Shown here: one piece after another, positions 8,399 to 62,127 of the stretch
How positions within the stretch are numbered: position 1 is the stretch's first letter
How the letters are laid out: every line of letters starts with the position of its first letter
DNA from: Coleofasciculaceae cyanobacterium
GTDB lineage: Bacteria > Cyanobacteriota > Vampirovibrionia > Vampirovibrionales > Vampirovibrionaceae
Reading direction: 5' to 3'
DNA: 64,000 nt
Assembly (NCBI GenBank): GCA_036703295.1
Contig: DATNPJ010000027.1
Location: forward strand, 32,838 to 96,837
Notes under the pieces: generated by a model
Database searches by the model: none
What the model was told of the DNA's origin: nothing
What the model saw: only the letters and a program-made list of their open reading frames with translations
Program-made: the position numbers and the translations under genes

Positions 8399-10135
8399 CT
8401 AGCTGGGTGGAAGCACTTTCAGGCGGCGGTTGGGTTCGTCGCCGATGCTGACGCTGCTCAGGCGGTGCTTTTCCACCAGCTCGTGCTGCAAGCGGCGGAT
8501 GTAAGAACGCCGGGGCGCCAGTTCCACCGGGGCTTTCTCGTCCAACGCCCGGTCGATGGCGTCCTGGGCCTCCCGCAGGGCCAGCTCGGTTTCATCCTCG
8601 TAAGGTTGCTGGGCCAGTTGTCCCGCAAAAGTCCCGGCGTCGGCATCCAGGGCCTCCCGAAGCGCCCGCTGAATCTGGGGCATGGTGTTGGTCTTGGCGT
8701 AAAACACCGGCACTTCGTAATCCTGGGCCAGCTTCAGTACTTTCGAGCCCGGCCGCGCGTTACCTTTGAGAGAAAGCACCGCATTGGCGTCGTAGATGTT
8801 CTTGGTGTAGCGGATATGGTTCAGGTTCAGCCGCTCCAGAATACGATCCAGGAAGGACTTGCTGATGCCGTACAAAAACACCCGGAATTCTTCCTCTCCC
8901 GGCCCCAATGGCGCCAAGTCCCGCATATGCTCGGTAGGCTCGCCCGGATGAAATAGGGTCGGAGCGCCTTCTTCGGCTTCCATTTCCATAATATGACCGG
9001 GCATCACTTCCAGATCGGTTCGCAGCACCTTGGTGGCGCCGGTTTCCACATCCACCTTGCGAATTTCCGGGAACAAGGTCCAGCCTCGCAGCAGATGATC
9101 CACGGCCTCGGGGACATCCGGGTAAACCGCCAGCGTGTACCGGTCGCGAATCTCGATGCAGATATCAAACGTGGGTTTCTTGGCCCGTTCCAGAATCGTT
9201 TTCTGGGATGAGCGCCGCCTGGCCTCTTCATCTCCCAGCGTGACGGTCTGAATGCCGCCGATCAAATCCGACAGCATGGGGTTTTTGACTAGGTTCTCCA
9301 GGGTATGCCCGTGGGCGGTGGCGATCAGAATTACCCCGCGTTCGGCGATGGTGCGCGCCGCCAGGGCTTCATCCTCGGTACCGATTTCATCAATGATGAT
9401 CACTTCCGGGGTGTGGTTTTGCACCGCTTCAATCATGGTTTCTTTTTGCCGCTCGCGATGAGGGACCTGCATGCGGCGGGCGCGACCCACGGCAGGGTGT
9501 GGAATATCCCCGTCTCCGGCAATCTCGTTGGAGGTATCCACAATGACCACCCGCTTCTGGGCTTCATCGGAGAGCAGCTTGGCAATTTCCCGCAGGCGGG
9601 AGGTCTTGCCCACACCCGGTCTTCCCAGCAGCAGAATACTTTTTCCGGACTCGATCAGATCTTTAATGGGTTCTACCGTGCCGGTGACCACTTTGCCCAC
9701 CCGGCAGGTCAGACCGACGATATCGCCCTGCCTGTTGCGCATGGCGCTGATCCGGTGCAGGGTGCGCGGGATTCCGGCCCGGTTGTCGCTGGTGAAATAG
9801 CCCATGTGTTTCACCACATGGTGAATCTCTTCCAGCGTCACTTGCTGGCTGCCCAGTTCCAGGATGTTCCCTTCGGAGAACCGGGCTTCCGGGACTCGGC
9901 CCAGATCCATCACGATTTCAATCAGGTCATCCAGATCGACGGTCTGCAGGGAGCGGCGAATGCGCTCGGGCAGAATATCAATCAGCAATTGCAGATCGGT
10001 TTCGATAATCGAGTCCTCGATATTCAGGGCCTCACCAAAGGTACGATGGATATGATCCAACGGCGTCGCCACATCGGCGTTGGCCGGTTGCACAGCTTTC
10101 TTCAGAATAGCATCCCTCTCGACGATTGTTATCAA
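8399..10135 (-). CDS. AAA+/P-loop ATPase of the R3H-domain (Ycf45-like) family
   Basis: 578 aa. Walker A 'LLLGRPGVGKTSRLREIAKLL' and Walker B 'VIIIDEIG'. Long N- and C-terminal extensions. Family assignment is from memory of the Ycf45/R3H ATPase architecture. Confidence 0.5.
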   Translation of the reverse strand: MITIVERDAILKKAVQPANADVATPLDHIHRTFGEALNIEDSIIETDLQLLIDILPERIRRSLQTVDLDDLIEIVMDLGRVPEARFSEGNILELGSQQVTLEEIHHVVKHMGYFTSDNRAGIPRTLHRISAMRNRQGDIVGLTCRVGKVVTGTVEPIKDLIESGKSILLLGRPGVGKTSRLREIAKLLSDEAQKRVVIVDTSNEIAGDGDIPHPAVGRARRMQVPHRERQKETMIEAVQNHTPEVIIIDEIGTEDEALAARTIAERGVILIATAHGHTLENLVKNPMLSDLIGGIQTVTLGDEEARRRSSQKTILERAKKPTFDICIEIRDRYTLAVYPDVPEAVDHLLRGWTLFPEIRKVDVETGATKVLRTDLEVMPGHIMEMEAEEGAPTLFHPGEPTEHMRDLAPLGPGEEEFRVFLYGISKSFLDRILERLNLNHIRYTKNIYDANAVLSLKGNARPGSKVLKLAQDYEVPVFYAKTNTMPQIQRALREALDADAGTFAGQLAQQPYEDETELALREAQDAIDRALDEKAPVELAPRRSYIRRLQHELVEKHRLSSVSIGDEPNRRLKVLPPS

Positions 10136-10174
10136 CCCAAACTCCTGTTTTTATTATAGAGGATGAGGATGAGG

Positions 10175-11251
10175 TTACGAACGCATAAATAAGCTGACGA
10201 GCCGCGCTGCAGTTTGTTCTGCAAGTTCATCCGGGAGGGTCCAGATTGTTTTTCGGGCCACAGTCCCCATGCCGACGCCCGAAATGAAGGCATAGCACTC
10301 ATTCTTGAGGAATTCGGAAGTTGTTACATTGATGCCGCCCGAGATGGTGAGCGGGGGCAGGGGGGTGCCGCTATCGCTGAACAGGGTGGCCACTTTCACG
10401 GCAGCTTCCAATGCCGGGCGGGAAGCGTCCGGATCCTCACTGCCGGACATGGGAGCCCCATCCACTTGGAGGATAACCGGCAAGCTGCTATTTTTGCTGG
10501 CGATGTCGTAAAAGGCCAGGATTTGCCCCGCCGGGAGCCCATCAACCCGGAAACAGAGCGAAATCAGTTTGTCTTGCAGCAGCGTGCCCCAGCGTTCAAA
10601 GAACGTTTCCAGCATGAACGGATCGACATAACGGCTGTGGATTTCCACCGCCTGCACCTGAGGGTGGCTGAGAACCGTCTCAATTTGGGCATCCACCTGG
10701 AAAGGAAGCAGGCTGAGCGCATCTGTGGGGCAGGTGGGCACGCAACGTCCACAGCCATAGCAAAGCGATTGTGAAATCTCCAGGGCTTCCGGCAGGGTGA
10801 GGGCTTCGGTGGGGCAAACCGGCAGGCACGCCCCGCATCGAATGCAGCCCGGTTCATTCAGCTCGATTTTGCGGAAGTGCGGATCCGGGTCCAGGGGTAA
10901 ACTCACCATCAGCACCGGCGGAACGCCAGGGAGGGACTCTAATTCGGAGACAACGGCTGAGAGCACGGCCGGATCGGGGGCGATATCAATGCAGTGGGCT
11001 CCCGCCTTGGAAAATATGCCGGCCAGCCAGGCTATTTTAGGCGCTTCGGTCAAGCTGCCGCCGCCAATCAATTTAAAAAAACGGCGTTGCGCCAGCGCAG
11101 CCAGCATCTGTCCCATCCCATCGGGGCGCGAGGGATCGGCTGTAGGTCTGTGGATCAATGGGAGGTGTTCCATGGCATCCCACCTTAGCCAAATTGCCGA
11201 CGCCTCGCAACATGCGGCCCGGAATCCGCCGGGACGTTTTCTCATACCCAA
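10175..11251 (-). CDS. 4Fe-4S dicluster domain-containing protein
   Basis: 358 aa. Two ferredoxin-type cluster motifs: 'CIRCGACLPVCP' and 'CYGCGRCVPTCP'. Remainder unassigned. Confidence 0.5.
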   Translation of the reverse strand: MGMRKRPGGFRAACCEASAIWLRWDAMEHLPLIHRPTADPSRPDGMGQMLAALAQRRFFKLIGGGSLTEAPKIAWLAGIFSKAGAHCIDIAPDPAVLSAVVSELESLPGVPPVLMVSLPLDPDPHFRKIELNEPGCIRCGACLPVCPTEALTLPEALEISQSLCYGCGRCVPTCPTDALSLLPFQVDAQIETVLSHPQVQAVEIHSRYVDPFMLETFFERWGTLLQDKLISLCFRVDGLPAGQILAFYDIASKNSSLPVILQVDGAPMSGSEDPDASRPALEAAVKVATLFSDSGTPLPPLTISGGINVTTSEFLKNECYAFISGVGMGTVARKTIWTLPDELAEQTAARLVSLFMRS

Positions 11252-11391
11252 TGGCCTGTATTCATCGCTCAGTCACCGGAGCGTTCGGGCTGGTCATGGT
11301 CGATGATAGCCTGAGGCACGGGATTGTAAGCCAATCCGGGAATAGAGGTTGTAGGGTGCCGCCGGTTTAGGGTATAACTGAAATTCAGGTT

Positions 11392-11467
<76 letters not shown>

Positions 11468-11544
11468 GTATTTTCAAGGGTTTTAAGGGTTGGGTGTCAT
11501 CATGAGGGCCATTCTGGGCCTAAGTTGGAAACAGGGGGGCAGAG

Positions 11545-11886
11545 ATGCGACTACAATTTCAGGGTGTCACGATCTATTCCGGTAACAAGGATGCCGTCCT
11601 TGACGCTTTTGATCAGCATACCGAGGAGACCGGCAAGCCCAGAACCGTGGGCGCCTTTTACAAGGGAGGGGCGGAAGCCGTGGTTCTGGATAATGTCGAC
11701 TATGACAGCTTCTGCGCCAGAAATAGCCTGGGGGATATTCATGACCCCCACAATCCGTATCATCAGGCCTATTTTTATTATCATCCTGCCGATTCTTCTT
11801 ATTTTTCCAATGACATTTCGGACTACCTGACGCAACAAGCAGGCAAAGATGCCCTGAAAATGCCCATCAGCAATGTGAAAGTTTAG
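11545..11886 (+). CDS. Hypothetical protein
   Basis: 113 aa ORF downstream of tRNA-Thr. Tyr/His-rich C-terminus. No recognisable family. Confidence 0.3.
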   Translation: MRLQFQGVTIYSGNKDAVLDAFDQHTEETGKPRTVGAFYKGGAEAVVLDNVDYDSFCARNSLGDIHDPHNPYHQAYFYYHPADSSYFSNDISDYLTQQAGKDALKMPISNVKV

Positions 11887-12201
11887 AATTCAAGAACGGG
11901 CATGGCCGCATTTTCAGCAGAATACGGCGCAGTGCCATGCGGGCAGAATCTCAATATTCCATCGCCACAACGCGCATCCCGCATTTGCGGCATCTGGGCT
12001 GCCCTGATCACGCTGTCCCGTTAGTCAAAAGGATCCTCGACCGCGAAAAAAGGTTAACCTGCGGGTATCTTTTTGCTAGAATAGGCACACTTTTAAACGC
12101 TTTCTACAGCGCTCCAATGCGCGTTATCGTTCAGTTTGGTTCTGAAGCAAGCCAGAGCATTTGCAAAGACCATAATTACCTAGAAAGAAAGAGACACACA
12201 A

Positions 12202-47956: not shown

Positions 47957-48233
47957 TGGCGTTGCTGGAAAGCGAATGCTGTCTAGCCCAATCTATCCAA
48001 CAAATGCAGCCTTAAACGGTTCCTTTTCTTGGTCTCAGGTCAACCGTAAGTATAGAAGGCGGTATGGAGGATAAAAGTCTAGTTCCTCCGTAGACTTTTG
48101 GGCGCTTTCTTGGAGACTTTAAGTATTAAGAATTGTAAATTTATCTAAAAGCCAAGACAGTTATTATTTATGAGGTGTGTTGTTGGGGTACAGCTTATAA
48201 CTTCACACGGACAAGCCGGAAGCATAGAACCCT

Positions 48234-49172
48234 ATGAACATAAATAGCCCTATGAACTTTCCAGTTGGAAGACATCATCTTGTATCTCCAAAATTTGGAT
48301 GGAAAAAGCAAGATTTAGAGAAAGACCCTTCGCGATGGCTGATTCATTTGGGAGTCGGCAAGGATAAAGACGTCATCTGGTCCAAAAACCGTCTGATACC
48401 CACCCAAAAACTAATTCATAAAGCATACAATATGCTCAACAGAACTTCCCTGGAGACTCCAGGTTTTCTGGTCATTGATAATATTGGCGACTTTGTTCAT
48501 ACTGAAAAAGGGCGACAACGCTTTCAAAATGAACTGTATCAAGGTGTCAACGACCTTTTTGAAAGAGCTATTCAAAAGGAAAGTACCTCCTCTCACATTC
48601 GTTCAGAACATGTTGAGACGAGAGAATTCAGACAAAAAGACGGCGCATTCAAACAGCCTTGTGGCTTCATGAGCGCTGCAAAGTTTACGTTAAAACGTTT
48701 TCACCATGATTCTCACACGATAATCGCATCCCATATCTATGACAAAGTTTATGGCATCAAAGGCGGCCAATTCATTCTTTTTGATGATTTGCAATATGCA
48801 AAAGATAAGAATGTAGCTGGCGGGCATACATCTCTCTATGAGCTTGAGCAAAACAAGCATGAATTCCCTTGTTCTCCGGTCTTAAAAGAAAAGTATAAAG
48901 ATCGAATTGGTGATTACACTTTCGAAATTGACACCATTCCTGAAAAAGGCAGCAATGGAAGACGCCAACCAAAGTTGATCATGTTTAATAACTTGTTTGA
49001 TGGCGTTGCTCATGGTGCAAGAGAGTTTGCAAGAATGTCACCACACTGGATGAGAAGTTATGCCCGGATTTTCTCCAGGCTATCCCGACACGGTGAAGAG
49101 CTCATCTGGGATAAGCTTCCGTTCCATCACCCTGATCATCACAACGCCAGCCGCTTAGAAGCATCATCATAG
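48234..49172 (+). CDS. Hypothetical protein (AT-rich ORFan)
   Basis: 312 aa, His-rich ('HHDSHTIIASHIYDK', 'FHHPDHHNAS'). Compositionally distinct from core genes. No recognisable family. Confidence 0.45.
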   Translation: MNINSPMNFPVGRHHLVSPKFGWKKQDLEKDPSRWLIHLGVGKDKDVIWSKNRLIPTQKLIHKAYNMLNRTSLETPGFLVIDNIGDFVHTEKGRQRFQNELYQGVNDLFERAIQKESTSSHIRSEHVETREFRQKDGAFKQPCGFMSAAKFTLKRFHHDSHTIIASHIYDKVYGIKGGQFILFDDLQYAKDKNVAGGHTSLYELEQNKHEFPCSPVLKEKYKDRIGDYTFEIDTIPEKGSNGRRQPKLIMFNNLFDGVAHGAREFARMSPHWMRSYARIFSRLSRHGEELIWDKLPFHHPDHHNASRLEASS

Positions 49173-49184
49173 AAAGAGTCTGCC

Positions 49185-49922
49185 ATGAGAATACCCAGCT
49201 ATAATTTTCAATCTTTTTCCAATGCTTCAAGCAGACATCATTCTCTGGCTGCTCATTTTTATTCGCAAGACCGCGTTTTCTTTGGAGGTATTCCTTTACA
49301 ACAACAAGCTTTAAGAGCGCTGGAAAAGGAGAATGTTCAGGGTTTTAACAAAATAAAACAACGTTTGGACAAACAAAAAACACCACTTGATTTATCAGGA
49401 TATGATTTTTCAGGCAAGATGCTACCTGGAATTGACTTGTCTGGCCTGAATTTGACGGGTGCCATTTTTACGAATGGTACAGATCTGACCAATGCAAAGC
49501 TCAGGAAAGCCCTGTTGCTTCGTATTGTCACAGACAATTCTACAACATGGACCGGAACGCCGTTTGATTCCACTCTCCCAATTAATGGGCCAAGCCTTAA
49601 AACCCTCATACAGAAATATAACTTCGAAGTAGAAGATCACTGTCTCGTTGGCTATCGAACCAATGGCTCTGTTAAAGGTGGTTTTACTTATGAGCTAGGG
49701 AAAAATTACAAATCGGATTTGTTCAGTCGTGATAAACAAAGCAGACACCACGGCTTATGGTTTTATCCTTCTACTGATATTGTGCGCCGACTGCATCCTG
49801 GTGAACCGATTATCAAAGTGCTTGTGCCCTATGGGGATTCTAACAAAACCAATTTAGTCAAGGGCGATTTGGATTTTCGTGCGCCAGAATTAACAGTATC
49901 AGATTTTCTTGGGGAAAACTGA
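49185..49922 (+). CDS. Pentapeptide-repeat protein
   Basis: 245 aa. Central 'DLSGYDFSGKMLPGIDLSGLNLTGAIFTNGTDLTNAKL' is a run of A(D/N)LxX pentapeptide repeats. AT-rich coding. Starts 13 nt after the previous ORF. Confidence 0.6.
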   Translation: MRIPSYNFQSFSNASSRHHSLAAHFYSQDRVFFGGIPLQQQALRALEKENVQGFNKIKQRLDKQKTPLDLSGYDFSGKMLPGIDLSGLNLTGAIFTNGTDLTNAKLRKALLLRIVTDNSTTWTGTPFDSTLPINGPSLKTLIQKYNFEVEDHCLVGYRTNGSVKGGFTYELGKNYKSDLFSRDKQSRHHGLWFYPSTDIVRRLHPGEPIIKVLVPYGDSNKTNLVKGDLDFRAPELTVSDFLGEN

Positions 49923-50175
49923 CAGATCTCCACAGATCCTTTATCTTCCCTATTTTTGGTGATTATATACTTAACGTACCTAGTCTTGAGGCGGCGCTCC
50001 ATATGGATCGGTTTTGCCATTGGGCTGGGAGAAGCTATCCACAAAGGCAAAATCAGGGCCTATGACGAATATCTTCGGTGTTGCCCCTCATTAGACTCGA
50101 ACCTCCTAAAACACAGAAATATAAACCGTTTCACCCACTATTTCAAATATCCCGGCTTTCCGGAAAAATCACGAA

Positions 50176-50207: not shown

Positions 50208-50209
50208 CG

Positions 50210-50283
50210 TACCCCCGGAGCGACTCGAACGCCCGACATGCTCCTTAGGACGGAGCCGTTCTATCCAACTGAACTACGGGGGC
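50210..50283 (-). tRNA. tRNA-Arg (anticodon CCU)
   Basis: Reverse complement folds as a cloverleaf: GCCCCCG / GTTC-AGTTGGATA-GAAC / GCTCC-GTCCTAA-GGAGC / GGGCG-TTCGAGT-CGCTC / CGGGGGT. The G1:U72 wobble makes the exact ends slightly uncertain. No encoded CCA. Confidence 0.75.
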
Positions 50284-51024: not shown

Positions 51025-51444
51025 TTGGATTACCGATCCGAGCAGCTGAATCAGGCCCAACAGAAACTGGCCGAAGAAGAACAGAAACGGTTCCGGATCC
51101 TGCAACGGATTCGGGAGTACGACACTTTCATCGAACAGGCGTTTCTTGACCAGCAGCAGGCCCTGTCGGAACCCGTGTTGGATGCAGGTCGGTTGCAAGG
51201 GTTTCCCAACTTTATCTGGCGACTCAAGCAAAGCCGGTTCCAGGAGCACCAGGCCCTGCAAGTGCAGGAACAGAAACTCCTCGGCGTCCGGGAAGAGCTG
51301 AAACAGGCCCTCATCAAGAAGAAATCGCTGGATATCCTGAAAGAGAAAGATCAAGCACGGTACCGCAAGAAAATCGAGAAGGCCGAAGAGGAGTTCCTGG
51401 CGGAACTGGCTCTCAACCGGCTGTCCCGACAAGGCGCTCACTAA
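51025..51444 (+). CDS. fliJ: Flagellar export protein FliJ-like (coiled coil)
   Basis: Coiled-coil protein immediately upstream of fliK. FliJ-like in-frame sequence ('ALKSYRFKLQTVLDYRSEQ') extends upstream to about 50977, with a GGAG RBS at 50973-50976. The only candidate starts are ATC/CTG or the TTG at 51025, so the start is uncertain. Confidence 0.5.
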   Translation: MDYRSEQLNQAQQKLAEEEQKRFRILQRIREYDTFIEQAFLDQQQALSEPVLDAGRLQGFPNFIWRLKQSRFQEHQALQVQEQKLLGVREELKQALIKKKSLDILKEKDQARYRKKIEKAEEEFLAELALNRLSRQGAH

Positions 51445-51486: not shown

Positions 51487-53577
51487 ATGCAGCTACCATT
51501 CAATCTGGCATCAACGCTGCCTCCGAAGCTAATCGGAAGCGCAACGGCTGAGCCTCTCGAAAAAGGAGAGGATGCCGAGGCGCGGATGGAGCAGGCCGGG
51601 CAATTCTCCAGCCTGCTGACTCAGGCGATGACCCAACAGGCTCCGGAATTGCCTGCTCCAGCATCCGCTGAAGACGCCGGGGCTACCAGCCCTGATTCCC
51701 TTGCCACTGCCGAAGGCCCCGTGGAGCTTTCTTTAATGAAGCCGACTGACGTTGGCGTCACCGACACTGCTGGCGAAGAGGGTCCGCCTAAACCGGAAGC
51801 GCCGGTCGGATTCCCGGTGAACCTGCTGGCCACGCTACAATCTTTACTTCACCCGTCACCACAGCCCAACCCGTCACCTCAAGCCATTGCGGAAACCACT
51901 GTTGTGGCATCCCCTCAGCCGTTGCAGGCATTATCATCCAGCAATTTACCGGATGTGCCCCAAGCTCCCAACTTGCCAGGCACCTCAATCGCTGCCCCCA
52001 TGGTTTCAGCGGTCCAAGGTCCTGCGGCATTGCCAATCCCGGCTTTGGGGCAACGCGAAAACACCCACCAAGCCAGTGCCCCGGTTATTGAGCCATTCCT
52101 GCAACCGGGAACGACCGAGAAAAAATTACTATCCGAAGAGTCCCCTGCCGTCGGTAGCCAGCGACTCTCCAGCCAGGATCAGCATTCCGAATCGGCTGAC
52201 TCAGTAGGCATGATCGATCAGTTGCCCCCTCAGAATGCGGGTTTCAACCAGGTATTGTCCATGCTGGATGCACAGCTATCTGGATTCACACCCCCAGTTA
52301 TGGCAACCGCAAACGCCCCGGAATCCCAGGGCTATCAGCCTGTGGCTGCGGCTAGCCTGCCTTTAAGTGGCGCTCAGGGAGGCTTGCCTGAGCCTCTACC
52401 TGTCATCTCCTCAGCGCCAACTCAAACACCGGCTTTCCAGTTGCCTGGTTCCCCATCGTCGGCAGGAGATACCGCCTTTACGCAGTCACCATCCGTCACA
52501 GAGACCAATGTCATTGGTACGCTGGAAGGCTTGCCCCTACCGAAGGCCGAGCCTGTGTCCGCTTCCGGGGGCCAGGTAGCACTGCCCCAAGCAGTCTCAG
52601 AAAGTGCTTTTGGCGAAATCGCTTTCAGTATGGGACCGGTGACGAGACAGACGCCCGGCCTTGAGGGTCAGAAACCAGGGAAACTTGAGGAACTGCAAAA
52701 ACAGCTGAGCCAACTGGGTGGCAGCATCGAGGCTTCCACAAACCAGACCGTGCCGGTCGGCTCTCCATTCGTGACGGCCAACCAGTCAATCCCGCAAGCT
52801 GAGGTCTCCAAACCCACCGCCACTGACGAACCTTTTGCCATTCCTGCTGAAGAGGCTCCGCTATCGGAAGCTTTTCCCAGTCAACCGGATTCCAGTACCG
52901 TTGAACCTTCAGCGGCTTCGATACCCGGCACGTCCAGCGGTGTGCCAGGCAACTCGGGATCGTCCCAGGGCAGTCCGCCGCAGTTTGTTTCGCAGGCACG
53001 CCATCCTATGGAGCAAGTGCTGGAAGGAACAGCCTACAGCGTGAAAAACGGCCACAAGGAACTGAATATTCGCTTGAACCCGGACAACCTGGGCGAGGTC
53101 CGAGTCAACCTGGTGAGCCTCGGGAATAACGAACTCAGTGCCCGTCTAATTGCCAGCACACCGGAAAGCCACGCCTTGCTGCAAAGCCAAGCGGATACAC
53201 TGAAAACTTCCCTGGAGGCGCAAGGCATCCGGGTGGAGCACCTGACCGTGGTTCTGGCGGGTAGTCAGGATGCCCGAGGCAACATGGGACAAGGCACCGG
53301 GAGCGACCAGCAGCAACAGCATTATCAGCAGTCATCCGGCCATTCGGGCAATCTGGCCCAGCAGGACTTCAACCGGGAGGATCAGCCGGGCAGCAATGTC
53401 TTCGCCCAGATGAACCAGTCGGGCGGCGGTCCATTCCAACAGAAATCCGGATTCGCCCAGAATCCCATCAGTGGCCCCTATCGCAGTGTTTCCGACGACG
53501 CGGCGTCACTGGAAACCAGCCGGACCGAAGCGCGGTCCCAAAGTCATGACAACGGCAGCATCAGCATTCTGGCTTAA
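51487..53577 (+). CDS. fliK: Flagellar hook-length control protein FliK
   Basis: 696 aa Pro/Ser/Ala/Gln-rich protein. C-terminal FliK/Flg_hook domain ('ELNIRLNPDNLGEVRVNLVSLGNNELSARLIASTPESHALLQSQADTLKTSLEAQGI'). Confidence 0.75.
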   Translation: MQLPFNLASTLPPKLIGSATAEPLEKGEDAEARMEQAGQFSSLLTQAMTQQAPELPAPASAEDAGATSPDSLATAEGPVELSLMKPTDVGVTDTAGEEGPPKPEAPVGFPVNLLATLQSLLHPSPQPNPSPQAIAETTVVASPQPLQALSSSNLPDVPQAPNLPGTSIAAPMVSAVQGPAALPIPALGQRENTHQASAPVIEPFLQPGTTEKKLLSEESPAVGSQRLSSQDQHSESADSVGMIDQLPPQNAGFNQVLSMLDAQLSGFTPPVMATANAPESQGYQPVAAASLPLSGAQGGLPEPLPVISSAPTQTPAFQLPGSPSSAGDTAFTQSPSVTETNVIGTLEGLPLPKAEPVSASGGQVALPQAVSESAFGEIAFSMGPVTRQTPGLEGQKPGKLEELQKQLSQLGGSIEASTNQTVPVGSPFVTANQSIPQAEVSKPTATDEPFAIPAEEAPLSEAFPSQPDSSTVEPSAASIPGTSSGVPGNSGSSQGSPPQFVSQARHPMEQVLEGTAYSVKNGHKELNIRLNPDNLGEVRVNLVSLGNNELSARLIASTPESHALLQSQADTLKTSLEAQGIRVEHLTVVLAGSQDARGNMGQGTGSDQQQQHYQQSSGHSGNLAQQDFNREDQPGSNVFAQMNQSGGGPFQQKSGFAQNPISGPYRSVSDDAASLETSRTEARSQSHDNGSISILA

Positions 53578-53604: not shown

Positions 53605-54105
53605 GTGAGCAGTATTCAGGCACAGGGCGATTTGAGTCGCCTGCAAAACAACACCAATCAGGTTCACTACCAGAACTCCCGCAAGAACCTGGGAAGCGAC
53701 CGGCTGGACCGGGAAGGCTTCATCCGTCTGATTCTGGCGCAGCTCCAGTACCAGGACCCTACCAACCCCGAGGACAGCACCCAGATGCTGACCCAGCAAC
53801 TGCAACTGGAGCAGGCCGACCAGATGAAAACCATCGTGGATGCCACCAAGTTCTCGCAGGCCGGCAGCATGGTGGGCAAGGAAGCCATGCTGGTTGATGC
53901 CCGCTGGGATTTCAATACCGGCACCACGGGTACGCCGGAATGGGACTACCAGACCAACGGCCCCAAAATGGTCAGCGGCACGATTGAGAGCGTGCAGTTT
54001 GACCGGGCGAAAGGCAAGGCGCTGGTCAACATTGACGGTAACTATTACGACGCGGACAACATTCGACAGATAGCACTGCCGCAGCCGCCCGCACAACCGA
54101 TTTAA
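53605..54105 (+). CDS. flgD: Flagellar hook capping/assembly protein FlgD
   Basis: 166 aa. N-terminal 'FIRLILAQLQYQDPTNPEDSTQML' FlgD motif. Confidence 0.8.
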   Translation: MSSIQAQGDLSRLQNNTNQVHYQNSRKNLGSDRLDREGFIRLILAQLQYQDPTNPEDSTQMLTQQLQLEQADQMKTIVDATKFSQAGSMVGKEAMLVDARWDFNTGTTGTPEWDYQTNGPKMVSGTIESVQFDRAKGKALVNIDGNYYDADNIRQIALPQPPAQPI

Positions 54106-54197: not shown

Positions 54198-55409
54198 ATG
54201 AGTCAAGGGATGTATACGGCCGTATCTGGTATCCGTTCGAACCAGACCCGTCTGAACGTCATTTCCAACAACATTGCCAACGTCAACACCCTGGGCTTCA
54301 AATCCAGTCTGGCTAACTTTGCCACCGTGTTCGCCAGCACCCTTACTGGCGGCACCCCTCCCAACGGGGTCTTGGGTGGAACCAACCCCATGCAGATGGG
54401 CAACGGCGCGCTGGTCTCCGAGATTGCCTCCAACTGGGGACAGGGCGGAACCCAGTTCACCGGTCGCAGCACCGACCTGATGATTAACGGCGAAGGTTTT
54501 TTTGCAGTGGAGCGGATTGACGTCAACAACCCGTTGAACACAGACTACTTCCTGACCCGGGCCGGTAACTTCACGCTGGACTCCGGCGGGAACATGGTCA
54601 CCACCTCCGGGAACCGGCTGCGCGGCACCTCCCAGCTTTCCGGTAGCGCTACCGCCTCGCTGGGCCGTATTAACGTGCCCCGTTCCTTTCTGATTACCAA
54701 GGAGTACGATGCCAACTCCAGGGTGCAGAACATTACTTACTCTCCGATTGGCACGACTGCCGCGCAGATCGCCGCTGATCAAACAGCGGCGCACGGTGCC
54801 CCTCCGGTTGGTAACACCCTCACCACTTTAGAAGTTCAACTGGTCAGTTTTACGATCGGCAGTGATGGGGCCATTTCCGCCAAGTATTCCAACGGCGACA
54901 TCATCACGGTTCGTACCAATGCCGCGACGGCCGCCGCCGCCGTAGCCGCCGGTGACCCGACGTTGACCCGTCGGGAGATCATCCACCTGCCTTATGAAGG
55001 GGGCACCTATCCCGCCAACAACTTTGTGGCATCGGATAACGCCTACAGCGGTATCGTCGCGCAAGCGGCCGCCCGACCGGTGTTTACGGGTGGCGTCACA
55101 CCCACGCTGGCTGGCGCTATGCAGGGGATGCAGATGCAGATCCAGACCGCGTCCGTTACCAACCCGGCGGGTATGTTGTATGACGGAAACAACAACTTCC
55201 TGTTGGGCGCCAACGCGGGGCAGGCTGCGTTTGGGGTCGCCGGAACGGGTTCTCGCGGCAGCTTGAACGCCGGTGCGCTGGAGTCATCCAACGTGGACCT
55301 GGCTGGCGAGTTCACCAACATGATCATCTCGCAGCGTGGCCTGGAAGCCTCCAGTAAGGTCATCCGCAGCCAGAGCGAAGTCATGCAGACCATCATTCAA
55401 ATTGTTTAA
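54198..55409 (+). CDS. flgE: Flagellar hook protein FlgE
   Basis: 403 aa. N-terminus 'MSQGMYTAVSGIRSNQTRLNVISNNIANVNTLGFKSS' and C-terminal 'ALESSNVDLAGEFTNMIISQRGLEASSKVIRSQSEVMQTII' rod/hook terminal heptads. Confidence 0.88.
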   Translation: MSQGMYTAVSGIRSNQTRLNVISNNIANVNTLGFKSSLANFATVFASTLTGGTPPNGVLGGTNPMQMGNGALVSEIASNWGQGGTQFTGRSTDLMINGEGFFAVERIDVNNPLNTDYFLTRAGNFTLDSGGNMVTTSGNRLRGTSQLSGSATASLGRINVPRSFLITKEYDANSRVQNITYSPIGTTAAQIAADQTAAHGAPPVGNTLTTLEVQLVSFTIGSDGAISAKYSNGDIITVRTNAATAAAAVAAGDPTLTRREIIHLPYEGGTYPANNFVASDNAYSGIVAQAAARPVFTGGVTPTLAGAMQGMQMQIQTASVTNPAGMLYDGNNNFLLGANAGQAAFGVAGTGSRGSLNAGALESSNVDLAGEFTNMIISQRGLEASSKVIRSQSEVMQTIIQIV

Positions 55410-55463: not shown

Positions 55464-55497
55464 CCGCAGGTTAACCGCCTGCGGTTTCTTTTTTTGT
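55464..55497 (+). terminator. Rho-independent terminator after flgE
   Basis: ccgcagg / ttaaccg / cctgcgg hairpin followed by a tttcttttttt run. Confidence 0.65.
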
Positions 55498-55527
55498 CTA
55501 GATGCCTGCAGTCGGGTTCGAATGCGA

Positions 55528-56139
55528 TTAGGCATTTTGGTCAAGGTGTGTGGAGATATGGCGGGACTTAATTCTGTCATAAGCGTCTTCTCTGGCTTGA
55601 GGAGACAAGGGAGCCTGGGTGTTTTTGCCCAATAACTCATCGGCGAAGCGTTTTACCTGGTTCCTGAAGAACTGGTTGATTTGTGCATTTGTGGATTCAG
55701 GAGATGAATCTTTTTCCCAAATCGGTACGTGGGGGTATTCCTTGTTCCAAGTTCTGCCAGGCGTCAAATTCTGCTTGCCACGGTATAAATCGGCTTCCAG
55801 CCGATACCAATCGCCCTGATCCCCTTCTCCTTTATTCCAGACCCCCATGGGGTGCGCTTTCACAACGATCCGGTCGGTTTTGTTGTTGCCGATCTTCCTT
55901 AGTGTTTTACGCCAGGAGGGGGACTGGAGCGAGGTGTCATTCAGTGCATTCTGAATAATCTTGTCCAGGGGGCTCGTGGTATTGCCATCCCCGACTTGAA
56001 CTTTCTTAAGTGAGTCATCAAGCACAATCTTTGCGCCGAACTGGGGCGGGTGAGCAGTGGGTCGGATCCTATTCATCGGTTCTTCCTTTCTTCTTTCAAT
56101 CAGACTTCTTAAAGCGCTGGGCGGCAAGGGCAACGTCAT
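55528..56139 (-). CDS. Hypothetical protein, tandem paralogue 2 (QFGAKI...GNNxTD family)
   Basis: 203 aa. Shares 'PPQFGAKIVLDDSLKKVQV...TS...ALND...SWRKTLRKIGNNKTD...YRLEADLYRGKQN' blocks with the upstream ORF. Confidence 0.45.
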   Translation of the reverse strand: MTLPLPPSALRSLIERRKEEPMNRIRPTAHPPQFGAKIVLDDSLKKVQVGDGNTTSPLDKIIQNALNDTSLQSPSWRKTLRKIGNNKTDRIVVKAHPMGVWNKGEGDQGDWYRLEADLYRGKQNLTPGRTWNKEYPHVPIWEKDSSPESTNAQINQFFRNQVKRFADELLGKNTQAPLSPQAREDAYDRIKSRHISTHLDQNA

Positions 56140-56581
56140 TCACCCAGGTTTGTATATTAGGTATTAGACTTGATCGTCTTAACGGTTCCAACGGCAGCAT
56201 TGTTCTCACCACATTGGCGTGATTCCAAGCTCCATGCCAGGAAGTCGTCTTGGCTGTTTGTTGATTACGCTTATATCGGGCTTCAACCGTATAAAAATTC
56301 TTTTTGTAGGGCTCGTCCCTAATGCTCAGCGCCACCGTATCCGTGTCATTGTTGCCGGCTGCTTCAATCAATGTCCGGGCGGACGGTTGTCCCTGCAACC
56401 CGTCGGGTTGCACCTTGGCCAACGCCCGATTCACCAAGTGGGCCACCGATGTGACACCTTCGTCTCGCGTGTAGACTTTTGCTTTAATGATTGATTGATC
56501 AAACTGAATCTTGGCGCCGAACTGGAGATTGGAAGGCATATTACGAACACCCGGCATTGGAGGACCCTCATTATCTTGCAT
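56096..56581 (-). CDS. Hypothetical protein, tandem paralogue 1 (QFGAKI...GNNxTD family)
   Basis: 161 aa. 'LQFGAKIQFDQSIIKAKVY...TS...ALAKV...SARTLIEAAGNNDTD...YTVEARYKRNQQ'. Overlaps paralogue 2 by 44 nt, so one of the two starts is probably internal. Confidence 0.45.
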   Translation of the reverse strand: MQDNEGPPMPGVRNMPSNLQFGAKIQFDQSIIKAKVYTRDEGVTSVAHLVNRALAKVQPDGLQGQPSARTLIEAAGNNDTDTVALSIRDEPYKKNFYTVEARYKRNQQTAKTTSWHGAWNHANVVRTMLPLEPLRRSSLIPNIQTWVNDVALAAQRFKKSD

Positions 56582-56637
56582 AGAAAAAACAAATAATTGA
56601 TTGATTTCATACTAAAAAAGCCGCTCAAGATCAAAAG

Positions 56638-57138
56638 TTGCGCATTACAAATCATCCCGCCAGGAGTGCCGGACAGGGGAATGGCATCCTAAAACGGACG
56701 GGGCTATGCTGGGGCATCCGGCATCGGCATGGAGAAAACTGGAGGGAGACGAGGATGAGTCTGAGTGTGAAGCAGCAAGGCGATTACCGGTTGTACGAGA
56801 CTCGGGATCGACGACGAAAGCTCCTGTTCCTGAGCGGTGTGACCTACGAGTGGCTGACAGCCGTGCGGGAAGACTTGCTGATGCTTAGTGGCGCCCACCC
56901 AACGGAGGACAGCCTGATTGGGCAAGGGCAATATTTGCTGCTGTGGCCCTACCAAGAGCCCGGCTGGGAGGATGGCGTTGATTACTTGGCGCTCTCCAAC
57001 TCCAAGGACTACTTCCACCTCTACAAGCTCCCCAACGGCTTGCCCACCGATCGCATCCAACAACGCCCCATCCTCAGCCTCCCCCGCATCGTCAGCTCGG
57101 CCACCTTCGCCGCAAAAGGCCTTTCCGGACTTATTTAA
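56638..57138 (+). CDS. Hypothetical protein
   Basis: Probable start at 'MSLSVKQQG' (about 56758), giving roughly 125 aa. No recognisable family. Confidence 0.3.
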   Translation: MRITNHPARSAGQGNGILKRTGLCWGIRHRHGENWRETRMSLSVKQQGDYRLYETRDRRRKLLFLSGVTYEWLTAVREDLLMLSGAHPTEDSLIGQGQYLLLWPYQEPGWEDGVDYLALSNSKDYFHLYKLPNGLPTDRIQQRPILSLPRIVSSATFAAKGLSGLI

Positions 57139-57186
57139 AGCGTCATGGCCGTTGGCACCTTCAGAGATCAATTGTGAAATGGGTTT

Positions 57187-57861
57187 GTGGTTAGATACCT
57201 ATGCACTTGGACGATTAATCTTGGAGTATTCCCCATGAAACTCAAATCTTCCACCTATACTTCTCCTAACTGCCCACTCCGTTACGGCCAAAGCAGACCG
57301 CAGACGATCCAGTTTGGCGGTCATGGGGACTCTTACGAGCCTACCTTGAAGCAAAAATACATTCCGGTAACGGTTGGAAAAGGGAAAAACAAGAAGACGG
57401 TTTTCTGCATGCCCAACAGCCCGTTTGGAAACCCCTGCGAAGACTGGTCCGAGGTGGCCAAAAGCGTCCAAAAGCAATTGGAAGCTTATCAGAACTTGAA
57501 AGACCCTACCCATAGCGTGGATATTCCGGAAAGCGAATTGGCGCGAGACGCTGAGGATAGCCATTCACCGAAAAATCTGTTTTTGGGTTGTGGTTTGGAA
57601 GCGGTCGTTCAAAACCAGCAAGCTACACTGATGGCGGGTCCCAACTTCCGAGCCCTCTATATTCCCGAAGAACATTGCATGTACATCGTGAACCGATATC
57701 ATGCCGAGAAGCCGGGTGATGGCGTCAAAGTTTTCCTGAACAAACAAAATGACCCCAACCGCTTTGAGCTGAAAAATTTATACCTCAACAACCCTTTTTT
57801 TAACGTGCATGACTATTTTGCGTGGCAGGTCTATTGCTGGGCAAATCATTTAGCGAAATAG
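57187..57861 (+). CDS. Hypothetical protein
   Basis: Probable start at 'MKLKSS' (about 57235). Contains 'QFGGHGDS', weakly reminiscent of the QFGAKI motif of the tandem paralogues. Cys-containing. No recognisable family. Confidence 0.35.
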   Translation: MVRYLCTWTINLGVFPMKLKSSTYTSPNCPLRYGQSRPQTIQFGGHGDSYEPTLKQKYIPVTVGKGKNKKTVFCMPNSPFGNPCEDWSEVAKSVQKQLEAYQNLKDPTHSVDIPESELARDAEDSHSPKNLFLGCGLEAVVQNQQATLMAGPNFRALYIPEEHCMYIVNRYHAEKPGDGVKVFLNKQNDPNRFELKNLYLNNPFFNVHDYFAWQVYCWANHLAK

Positions 57862-58602
57862 CACCCATGACGCCAGGGCGTTGTTGAACAGGTGGCCGAT
57901 GACGCCGGGAATGATGGATTGGGTGCGTTCCCGCCAGTAACCCAGCACCAGCCCCAAGAGCAGCACGTACACCAGCGCCTGGATCTTCTCGTAATAGGTG
58001 CCGTGGAATAGCAGGAACAGCAGGCACGTAAAGATGACCGAGCGCACGGGTGTGGAAATCTTGTGGAAGGTGGTCTGCACGAAGCCCCGGAAGACCACCT
58101 CTTCCAGCACCGGCGCCATCAAAATGGCAAAGAAGCTGATAATCCGCAGTTCGTTGGAGGTGTAGCTTTCATAGGGCCGTTCCGAAGCGCCACCGGTCCA
58201 TTTAATCCACAAACTCACCAACACCATCATCGTCAGCATCACCAGGATGACGTGGATGGCTTCCTTCAGGTAGTATCCCGGCGAGCGGCTGAAGTCCACC
58301 CCCAGCCAGGGCAGGATGTTGCTGCGGTATCGCCAGGCCAAAATGAAAAAAATGGCGACCCAACTGGCAAAAGTAGTAGCCTGCTGGATGAAAATTTCGT
58401 AGGTGGGTTCTAAAAAAGGCGCCGTCAGGGTCAGGATATTGGAAACCAGCAGCGGAACCAGGATATAACCTGAAAACAACCCGACTGCAACCGTGTACAT
58501 ATCCCAGGGAGGTAAGGGCGCCGAGGCTGCATGAGCCGGTTGTCCGCTCCCGATCTCTTCAGGCTCCTGAATATTCTGTGTACTCTCCACTTTTTGAAGC
58601 AT
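57850..58602 (-). CDS. CPBP family intramembrane metalloprotease (CAAX protease self-immunity type)
   Basis: 250 aa polytopic protein. Motifs 'EEVVFRGF', 'FHGTYY', 'GVIGHLFNN' are the three CPBP motifs. Confidence 0.75.
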   Translation of the reverse strand: MLQKVESTQNIQEPEEIGSGQPAHAASAPLPPWDMYTVAVGLFSGYILVPLLVSNILTLTAPFLEPTYEIFIQQATTFASWVAIFFILAWRYRSNILPWLGVDFSRSPGYYLKEAIHVILVMLTMMVLVSLWIKWTGGASERPYESYTSNELRIISFFAILMAPVLEEVVFRGFVQTTFHKISTPVRSVIFTCLLFLLFHGTYYEKIQALVYVLLLGLVLGYWRERTQSIIPGVIGHLFNNALASWVLFR

Positions 58603-60488: not shown

Positions 60489-62127
60489 GAACGATTTCCA
60501 AGCCGTCTTTTTCCACGGTGGTGGTGCCGTCCTTGTTATCCAGGATTTGCAACCCGATATCCGTCAGGTGCTTGCGAATCGCATCCGCCTGCGTCCAGTT
60601 CTTAATCTCTTTGGCTTTTTTGCGGTATTCCACAATTTCCGCCAGCAACACTTCCGGCTCCTGGTCCTCTTCCAACCACTTCCCGCTCAGTTCTTTGTAG
60701 ATGGTTCGGATTTGTTCTTGAGGGAGATCAACTGATGCAAATAAAAATTGCCAATTAAATCCCAATATATAGAGCATTGTCATTATTTCTTGAAAGTAAA
60801 ATCTATGAACATCAAGATAATGATCTGTAAACCCACTCAACATCTTATTAAGGTTTGCTAAAGCCTGAGCAGTATCAAGGTCTTTTTCCAAGTTCAGCTC
60901 AAAGGCAAGTAAACATTGATATAGTATGTAATATTCGGGTCTCTTTAGAAGCTCTTCTTCAGAAGCAGTTGCAACTAATTCATCTCTTTCATCTTTTTTA
61001 CGATAAAGAGCTTGTTTATTTGGAATAATTAATTCATCAATTTCTTTTTCAGTTAATTTAAGATGAGAATTAATGCGTACCAGACGACTCTCTAACTTTT
61101 TCACCCAATTTGCCGCAGCCTGTAATGCTTCATCATTAAAATCAACCGGCATGCGATAGCCGTTGGTTAGCAGGAAATACCGGATCGTATTGGCGTCATA
61201 GCGTTCCAGGAGTTTTTTAATCGTGGAGAAATTGCCCAAACTCTTGGACATTTTTTCGCCGCTGACATTCACGAAACCGTTGTGCAGCCAGTATTTGGCA
61301 AAACGATGGTTGGCGCAGGAATCTTCCGGGCCGCCGGCTAAATTCTGCCAGGTCTCGGTTTGGGCGATTTCGTTTTCATGGTGCGGAAACACCAGGTCCG
61401 CGCCGCCCGCGTGGATGTCAATCTGTGGCCCTAAGATAGCGTAATTCATCGCGGAGCACTCAATGTGCCAGCCCGGACGGCCCCGGCCCCACGGCGATTC
61501 AAAGCAATAGCCCTGGCTTAGCTTCTCGTCCGTCTGCTCTTCCGGTGGGACCGACTTCCACAGGGCAAAGTCCAGCGGGTTTTCCTTGTTGGGGTCCACG
61601 TCCACCCGTGCGCCGCTTTTCAACTCATCCAACGGCTTCTTGCTCAGCTGGCCGTAGTTGCCATCCGCAGACACCCGGAAATACACCGTCCCGTCCGACG
61701 CCACATAGGCGGCGTTTTTGGCAATCAACCCCTGGATCACCTCAATCATGGTCCCGATATACTCGGTGGCCTTGGGCTCGCGGTCCGGTGACAGCACGTT
61801 TAGCGCCGCCATGTCGGCTTTAAAGCTTTCGTAATTGCGCTCGGCCACGTCTTTGGGAAGCTCTCCACGTTCTTTCGCCCGGTTTAAAATCTTGTCGTCC
61901 ACATCCGTCACGTTGCGCACGTAAGTCACGTCGTAGCCCAGGAATTTCAGGAAGCGATACAGCACATCCCAGGTGATATAACAGCGAGCGTGGCCCAGAT
62001 GGGCGTCATCGTACACCGTGGGGCCGCAGACGTACATCTTCACCTTACCGGGCGCCAGCGGGTTGAATTCCTCCAGCTTGCCGGTGAGCGTATTGAACAG
62101 TTGCAGCTTGGGTTGGGGTTCGGTCAT
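60481..62127 (-). CDS. cysS: Cysteinyl-tRNA synthetase with an in-frame AT-rich insertion (about 140 aa) in the C-terminal half
   Basis: '[19 protein letters not shown]' HIGH motif, 'KMSKS' present ('[10 protein letters not shown]'), Zn-binding Cys residues. 548 aa versus the usual about 465. The segment at about 60720-61140 is strikingly AT-rich and still in frame. Confidence 0.85.

Follow-up and report, generated by a model that had tools for sequence, protein, structure and literature searches.

What are the four open reading frames (ORFs) that separate the flagellar hook gene flgE from a gene for a CPBP/Rce1-like intramembrane protease in a 64,000-nucleotide stretch of contig DATNPJ010000027.1 (assembly GCA_036703295.1, positions 32,838 to 96,837; the whole stretch is called the window hereafter), and does their position tell us anything about what they do? 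Two of them, here named gene A and gene B, lie on the minus strand and the other two, orf127 and orf208, on the plus strand. An earlier note made from the sequence had described A and B as diverged tandem duplicates of no known family and, from their location next to the hook gene and the protease gene, had suggested a polymorphic toxin-immunity system or flagellar-exported substrates. Comparison with related genomes leads us to another reading, which we hold to be moderately probable: the four ORFs would form a lineage-specific accessory islet at the convergent junction of the flgE terminator and the CPBP 3' end in one uncultured Vampirovibrionales clade, and would represent orphan, variable and fast-evolving families. 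The islet, about 2.35 kb long, covers positions 55495–57855 of the window. Its constant core is orf127 together with a 5' leader of about 85 nt, flanked by two unrelated orphan families that are gained, lost or duplicated from one close relative to another.

Both flanks of the islet are recognizable, as the earlier note had stated. On the left, flgE (54198–55409, plus strand) matches the Pfam entries PF00460, PF22692 and PF06429 and is followed by a terminator hairpin (55464–55484; 8-bp stem with 6 GC pairs, then a T-run) that marks the islet edge; on the right, the convergent CPBP gene (57850–58602, minus strand) matches PF02517 with E = 3.5e-19, and MlaD, mini-RNase III and cysS genes lie beyond it. 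Two outgroup metagenome-assembled genomes (MAGs) labelled 'uncultured Vampirovibrionales' (L010 and L011), which are the only relatives of the CPBP gene in the genome collections, display the same order of cysS, mini-RNase III, MlaD, CPBP and flgE genes, and the flgE terminator has a counterpart in them. In L011 the CPBP gene (10004–10771, plus strand) is followed about 70 nt further on by convergent flgE (10841–12019, minus strand), in L010 the flgE terminator hairpin begins 10 nt past the CPBP stop codon, and in both cases nothing lies in between. Since CPBP abuts the flgE terminator in these two genomes, flgE and CPBP are ancestral neighbours that stand outside the islet, and the region 55495–57855 is therefore a lineage-specific insertion. 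It follows that the proximity of the islet to flgE and CPBP carries no functional information; the positional argument of the earlier note thus does not hold, A and B being moreover encoded on the strand opposite to flgE.

Within the clade, four arrangements of the islet are found. The window shares the first one (flgE, A, B, leader-orf127, orf208, CPBP) with L004–L007 and L014, all 100% identical to it. The second one (flgE, B', leader-orf127, CPBP), present in L001, L002, L003 and L012, contains a B counterpart of 177 aa and lacks the segments 55497–56094 (gene A) and 57140–57855 (orf208) of the window. In the third one (L008 and L009), a B'' gene and leader-orf127 are followed by a gene for a 391-aa protein with two tandem orf208-type domains and by CPBP. 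The fourth one (L013) consists of flgE, its terminator, 61 nt, leader-orf127 and an orf208-like gene; both A and B are lacking, the window segment 55495–56663 being absent. Gene A is thus missing in L001, L002, L012 and L013 and gene B in L013, orf208 is missing in L001, L002 and L012 with a homologous orf208 start found in L013, and the copy number in the clade is 0, 1 or 2 for the A/B family and 0, 1 or 2 domains for the orf208 family. The earlier note had proposed to look for variable copy number across relatives, and such variation indeed exists. Because A is missing in the second and fourth arrangements and B also in the fourth, the A/B family is dispensable, whereas the sole islet part common to all four arrangements is orf127 with its leader. 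In L001 orf127 is retained although orf208 is missing, and in L013 although A/B is missing. Further copies of the A/B, orf127 or orf208 families were found neither in the window nor in the outgroup loci. As to the sequences surrounding these genes, L001 has, in place of the 598-nt gene-A segment, 52 nt without clear homology to that segment, and the C-terminus of its B' (L001 3436–3514) is about 26 codons longer, reads through the flgE terminator hairpin and ends in ...KKETAGD*. In L013 (positions 1–1208) the leader, orf127 and the orf208-like gene are all located on the flgE strand, and orf127 could be reached there by read-through from flgE.

Concerning the two minus-strand genes, the longest-ORF calls extend over 55528–56139 and 56096–56581 (those of the plus strand over 56638–57138 and 57187–57861), and the 44-nt overlap between the former two is an artefact of this way of calling, in line with the assumption of the earlier note that one of the two starts is internal. 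The true start of A, the distal paralogue (55528–56076, minus strand), is the ATG at 56076, which is provided with the Shine-Dalgarno (SD) sequence GAAAGGAAG and lies 19 nt past the stop codon of B (56096–56098); the NCBI annotation (P0001, 182 aa) agrees with it. For B, the proximal paralogue (56096–56557, minus strand), sequence comparison indicates the ATG at 56557 as the most likely start, giving a protein of 153 aa: GAGGG occurs 7 nt upstream, the SD sequence is similarly placed in L001 and L009, and with this start the N-termini of all A/B family members align. The two proteins are 25% identical over 125 aa (BLASTP, 35.8 bits, E = 8e-8), and a hidden Markov model (HMM) built exclusively from B and its two orthologues matches A with E = 4.5e-8 and 28.8 bits among the 881 six-frame segments of the window; as a control, the best score among 2000 shuffles of A was 7.6 bits. 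The similarity is distributed over collinear blocks (QFGAKI..D.S; TS..AL; PS.R...GNN.TD; Y..EA.Y...Q) that can be seen in the alignment, and the QFGAKI-coding 5' ends of the two genes still share 75% identity over 52 nt of DNA. A and B are genuine, old, diverged tandem paralogues, and the claim of the earlier note is fully supported on this point. Their common strand, the 19-nt gap and the SD sequence proper to A suggest that B and A would be transcribed as a bicistron from the divergent, AT-rich spacer that separates B from orf127 (56558–56663), in which the promoters of both the B-A pair and orf127 may be presumed. The three-lineage alignment of this spacer contains a conserved stretch, GATTGATTT(T/C)ATAC; no match to the sigma-70 consensus was found in it, and in L013 the spacer is wholly missing.

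The core gene orf127 (56755–57138, plus strand) defines an orphan family with host-like codon usage, and the non-coding leader in front of it (56664–56754, plus strand) is near-invariant from 56664 to about 56745 in all four arrangements, with about 3–6 differences per 85 nt. This leader core is about 94–97% identical over four lineages, as compared to a synonymous divergence (dS) of 0.5–0.7 in the flanking genes, where 42–58% of the synonymous sites differ. Its counterparts are found at 2793–2893 in L001 (minus strand), 3505–3614 in L012, 425–532 in L009 and 392–496 in L013, and in the latter the homology to the window restarts exactly at the 5' edge of the leader. The leader holds the inverted repeat TGCCGGA...TCCGGCA and the SD sequence GGAGG. 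A 2-nt indel in L001, L012 and L013, together with a stop codon that most lineages possess but that is open in L013, makes it unlikely that the leader is coding. A 9-codon upstream ORF (ATGGAGAAAACTGGAGGGAGACGAGGATGA) can be read at 56729–56758 of the window, its TGA overlapping the ATG of orf127; since the 2-nt deletion in L001 brings the ATG of this upstream ORF in frame with orf127, and L009 is devoid of the ATG, the upstream ORF is not conserved. Rfam yields no match over 56600–56760 even at E ≤ 10, the folding energy reveals no thermodynamic signal (z-score of the minimum free energy, −0.6), and a covariance-model search recovered no second copy of the leader in the window or in the L010 and L011 loci; as the leader sequences are near-identical, covariation is impossible. 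The leader is a candidate cis-regulatory element, acting either as RNA or as an operator.

The rates of change differ markedly within the islet. Between B and its orthologues (P0003, 62% identity; a fragment in L009, 58%) identity amounts to 56–62%, with a ratio of nonsynonymous (dN) to synonymous divergence of 0.19–0.30 at dS of 1 or more, and between orf208 and the N-terminal half of the L008 protein to 52%, with dN/dS of 0.15, likewise at dS of 1 or more. The corresponding values are 82–91% identity and dN/dS of 0.06–0.13 for orf127 between lineages, 85–91% and 0.09–0.13 for CPBP between lineages, and 93% and 0.07 for FlgE as compared to its L001 orthologue. With ratios of 0.06–0.30, B, orf208, orf127, FlgE and CPBP are thus all under purifying selection; the other contigs carrying A are all 100% identical to the window and offer no polymorphism from which dN/dS of A could be derived. 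When dN is considered, B and orf208 (0.25–0.37) evolve 4–5 times faster than their neighbours (0.05–0.09), and for B the value is 0.25 versus 0.05 for FlgE, CPBP and orf127. The G+C content at third codon positions (GC3) is 0.58 in A, 0.55 in B and 0.56 in orf208, versus 0.75 in orf127, 0.74 in FlgE and 0.73 in CPBP (0.71–0.77 when FlgD and MlaD are included). The low values of A, B and orf208 suggest foreign origin or weak codon selection, and that of orf127 suggests native status. The islet shares with the strain-variable ORFan islets known from convergent terminator junctions its situation as a block between two conserved convergent genes, its absence from outgroups, a content that differs among close relatives, an atypical codon usage and the lack of homologues outside the clade. 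It differs from them by its core, orf127 having native codon usage, housekeeping-level conservation and an ultra-conserved leader, and by the lack of mobile-element signatures, since the islet contains no integrase or transposase gene, no attachment site in a tRNA gene and no repeats at its ends.

The orphan status of the four proteins was assessed against a wide range of databases. A, B, orf127, orf208 and their relatives match nothing in Pfam, NCBIfam, PADLOC (no family at E ≤ 1 with any of the four proteins), PHROGs and the PDB sequences, which confirms for all four ORFs the earlier note's view that no known family is involved. A word-index search covering 5.8 billion clusters recovered, besides the proteins themselves, only the B orthologue P0003 (62%) and two orf127 clusters (91% and 84%); with orf208 as query, this search missed the two-domain 391-aa protein of L008. 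Scanning viral_contigs with the A/B and orf208 families, and metagenome_contigs with the orf208 family and with the leader as a DNA pattern, yielded nothing. When 1.84 billion representatives were searched exhaustively with HMMER and the A/B family profile, only A, B and one marginal match (E = 7e-4) were returned, the latter being P0005, an LPXTG-anchored surface protein of Gram-positive type with eight immunoglobulin (Ig)-like repeats. The likeness concerns a strand-turn-strand segment of 34 residues, GNNxTDxVxxS...Y.vEa.Y, in the repeat unit of P0005, which is of the bacterial surface Ig-like type (PF16403); hhalign assigns it a probability of 30%, the whole-library E-value of 7e-4 is a sum over 7 repeats, and PF16403 itself gives no direct match to A or B. 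The match is limited to this one hairpin, and we regard the likeness as a local one, probably a convergent motif. By hhalign profile-profile comparison the A/B, orf127 and orf208 families are mutually unrelated, and a kinship of orf127 to either of the other two was rejected on this basis. The earlier note had seen in the QFGGHGDS string of orf208 a reminiscence of the A/B N-terminus; this similarity is not significant (BLASTP E > 0.2; hhalign P = 0.19 over a 16-column N-terminal segment), and a shared N-terminal signal was set aside as unproven. A QFG/RFG string is kept within the A/B family and within the orf208 family.

Both A and B, about 150–180 aa long, are soluble proteins of basic and hydrophilic character that lack a Sec signal. 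Their isoelectric points (pI) are 9.7 and 10.0 and their grand averages of hydropathy −1.0 and −0.56, respectively, both are devoid of cysteines, and with a maximum 19-residue hydropathy below 0.5 the hydropathy profile contains neither a signal peptide nor a transmembrane segment, so that the check for signal peptides recommended in the earlier note turned out negative. An AlphaFold2 (AF2) model of B computed from a three-sequence alignment is of low confidence, with a predicted local distance difference test score (pLDDT) of 58 and a predicted template modelling score of 0.52. It begins with short strands, followed by two helices, an antiparallel meander of three strands and, at the C-terminus, a long helix (strands E28-31, E67-75, E82-91 and E94-104; helices H32-41, H54-60 and H126-145), and an alpha/beta sandwich of two layers is the probable fold; Foldseek found no match to it at E ≤ 0.001. 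The second orphan family is that of the variable accessory gene orf208 (57235–57861, plus strand), for which the single-sequence AF2 model reaches a pLDDT of 34. In the 391-aa protein (L008 549–1724), identity to orf208 amounts to 52% in the N-terminal and 32% in the C-terminal half, and to 35% between the two halves; as both halves resemble orf208, this protein represents an internal duplication. The three diverged copies share the invariant motifs C58, FR.LYIPEEHC and GDGVKV. At their 3' ends, orf208 (stop codon 57859–57861) and the convergent CPBP gene (stop codon 57850–57852) share 12 nt, and the last codons of orf208 (HLAK*) correspond to sequence already located beside the CPBP stop codon in L010, so the inserted orf208 frame ends in ancestral flanking DNA.

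With these data the other possible natures of the islet can be weighed. In a toxin-immunity or toxin-antitoxin cassette, orf208 would be the toxin or enzyme, orf127 or A/B would be the cognate immunity protein or antitoxin, and the shifts in copy number would reflect their turnover. Indeed, the presence or absence of orf208 and its domain duplication beside an orf127 that is always kept resemble the retention of orphan immunity genes, the invariant polar and Cys/His residues of orf208 possibly form an active or metal site, and A and B, which are small, in tandem, fast-diverging and present in 0, 1 or 2 copies, recall the paralogues of 150–180 aa without signal peptide encountered in polymorphic toxin-immunity cassettes, whose copy number and content also vary between close relatives. 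On the other hand, orf127, with 84–91% identity and dN/dS of 0.06–0.13, is too conserved to co-evolve with orf208 (52%) and is still strongly constrained where orf208 is missing. In polymorphic cassettes the immunity genes directly follow their toxin on one strand, but A and B are located opposite to orf208 and divergent from orf127. The two families also occur apart from each other: B' of L001 is not accompanied by orf208, and L013 has the orf208-like gene but no A/B. Models of toxins, immunity proteins, antitoxins and defence proteins matched none of the four proteins, a trafficking domain and an adjoining secretion system are lacking, and unlike in polymorphic toxin-immunity loci no toxin or trafficking domain (Rhs/YD, CdiA, LXG, PAAR) is recognizable nearby, the 391-aa protein of L008 included, while dN/dS stays well below 1. 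Type II toxin-antitoxin pairs differ by their helix-turn-helix, ribbon-helix-helix, AbrB or toxin domains, which were not found here, and each gene of the islet occurs somewhere without its neighbour. Nor can the protease be called upon as in the CPBP/Abi loci of bacteriocin self-immunity, for CPBP is an ancestral neighbour rather than a partner and is found between MlaD and flgE even in islet-free genomes. The toxin-immunity role advanced in the earlier note has thus gained no positive evidence, and we regard it as unlikely. A similarly low probability is given to the idea that A, B and orf208 are lineage-specific effectors for predation or host interaction, secreted without Sec signal by a type IV secretion system (T4SS) of the conjugative type. 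Proteins that are hydrophilic, signal-less, fast-evolving, lineage-restricted, variably present and of low GC3 are typical of effector repertoires, and A, B and orf208 show these traits. Furthermore, the closest genomes belong to the Vampirovibrionales, an order including predators that are proposed to inject effectors. For V. chlorellavorus, the use of a T4SS and effectors has been predicted and a T4SS has been proposed to serve predation (PMC4451040). However, no T4SS genes or effector-type domains occur in or near the islet, and the C-terminal sequences, judged by eye, contain no recognizable translocation signal.

A flagellar role, also put forward in the earlier note, would make the islet proteins substrates of the flagellar type III export apparatus or accessory proteins placed beside the hook gene for co-regulation. 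The islet is directly downstream of fliJ (51025–51444), fliK (51487–53577), flgD (53605–54105) and flgE, all on the plus strand, which is also the strand of orf127 and orf208, and in L013 orf127 starts only about 150 nt past the flgE terminator. Early flagellar subunits possess a degenerate gate-recognition motif, F-x-x-x-hydrophobic, to which the N-terminal FGA(K/R/Q)I of A and B conforms in sequence and might correspond, FlgD having FIRLI at a similar position; such a string is nevertheless non-specific and expected by chance in most proteins. Moreover, A and B are read from the other strand and are separated from flgE by a strong terminator, A/B is missing in L013 and A in L001, no family of flagellar proteins resembles them, and the whole islet is missing in two flagellated outgroups (L010 and L011) with the same flgE context. 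No positive evidence has been gained for export or secretion of A and B, and a flagellar role appears very improbable to us. Hardly more probable is that A and B are RNA- or ribosome-binding factors of small size and basic charge with a beta-alpha-beta-beta-beta-alpha sandwich like that of HPF/YfiA/pY proteins. The pI of about 10 and the order of strands and helices from E28-31 to H126-145 in the low-confidence model of B speak in its favour, the two-layer topology and the basic charge being those of the HPF fold. B has, however, additional N-terminal strands, a long C-terminal helix and no sequence match to these proteins, including the Pfam Ribosomal_S30AE family, its model lacks any Foldseek match at the above threshold, and the scores are within the range of generic two-layer sandwiches: as LptE, TolB-N and T7 Gp1.2 match the model equally well, the resemblance to HPF appears generic. 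Finally, low GC3, homologues confined to the clade and a variable presence among lineages would also be expected of spurious or decaying ORFs in non-functional DNA between two operons. This explanation is largely refuted and retains next to no probability, given, for B and orf208, dN/dS of 0.15–0.30 where dS is at least 1, a protein-level paralogy of A and B still significant at 25% identity, well-placed SD sequences for A and B, that of B being kept in its orthologues, and reading frames that are intact in all lineages.

Of the interpretation given in the earlier note, the paralogy, the orphan status and the variable copy number are thus retained, and the positional argument is abandoned together with the toxin-immunity or flagellar role built upon it. 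The reading as a lineage-specific accessory islet must itself be confronted with several observations that weigh against it. The mean dN/dS is well below 1, without any sign of the diversifying selection of an arms race, and the low GC3 might merely reflect low expression. Whether the islet was gained here or lost elsewhere is judged from two outgroup loci only, and with three or four lineages sampled, mostly on short contigs, A may have been either ancestral and later lost or added later. In addition, the co-transcription of B and A is deduced from their spacing alone, no domain is recognizable in the four proteins and no confident structure is available for B or orf208, in view of the pLDDT values of 58 and 34. 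With respect to function, we tentatively consider, as a possibility of rather low probability, that A and B are interaction proteins outside housekeeping whose partners change quickly, for example immunity-like factors that bind or neutralise, or effectors whose delivery requires no Sec signal; neither the flagellum nor CPBP nor orf127 would have a part in their function. A bolder proposal, which we think quite improbable, is that the islet constitutes an undescribed self-contained module in which orf127 would be controlled by the leader acting as a cis-regulatory RNA of a new type, similar to a riboswitch or bound by a protein, and A/B and orf208 would be interchangeable fast-evolving partners or effectors of this core, the whole being a new system of conflict or host interaction peculiar to Vampirovibrionales. 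If the leader of orf127 turned out to be a regulatory RNA with a defined structure, this would open a way to find out what the islet as a whole does. Beyond these proposals, the accessory islet offers a small, clean case of build-up and turnover of orphan genes at a convergent-terminator junction, in a non-photosynthetic lineage of cyanobacteria that has been sampled poorly and may be predatory; with it, three protein families are defined that are without relatives among about 15 billion public proteins, and its analysis removes a tempting but false guilt by association with the flagellar hook and the CPBP protease.

Some further observations concern the remainder of the window. A block of low GC content, 0.39–0.43 as compared to 0.55–0.60 nearby, is found at 48000–49950, where it encodes a 312-aa ORF without Pfam match and a 245-aa pentapeptide-repeat ORF; a tRNA-Arg(CCT) gene (50209–50283) is situated just downstream of it, and the block may be another acquired segment. 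On the other side of the islet, the GC content of the 3' part of cysS (minus strand, 60500–61250) falls to 0.36–0.41, the rest of the gene being GC-rich, and CysS is 548 aa long in the window versus 526 aa in L011. The NCBI source label of the window is 'Coleofasciculaceae cyanobacterium' (locus tags V6C52_05220-05235), yet a flagellar operon is present in the window, and among the GTDB species representatives synteny with the window is confined to uncultured Vampirovibrionales; the label 'Coleofasciculaceae' looks wrong for the source MAG.

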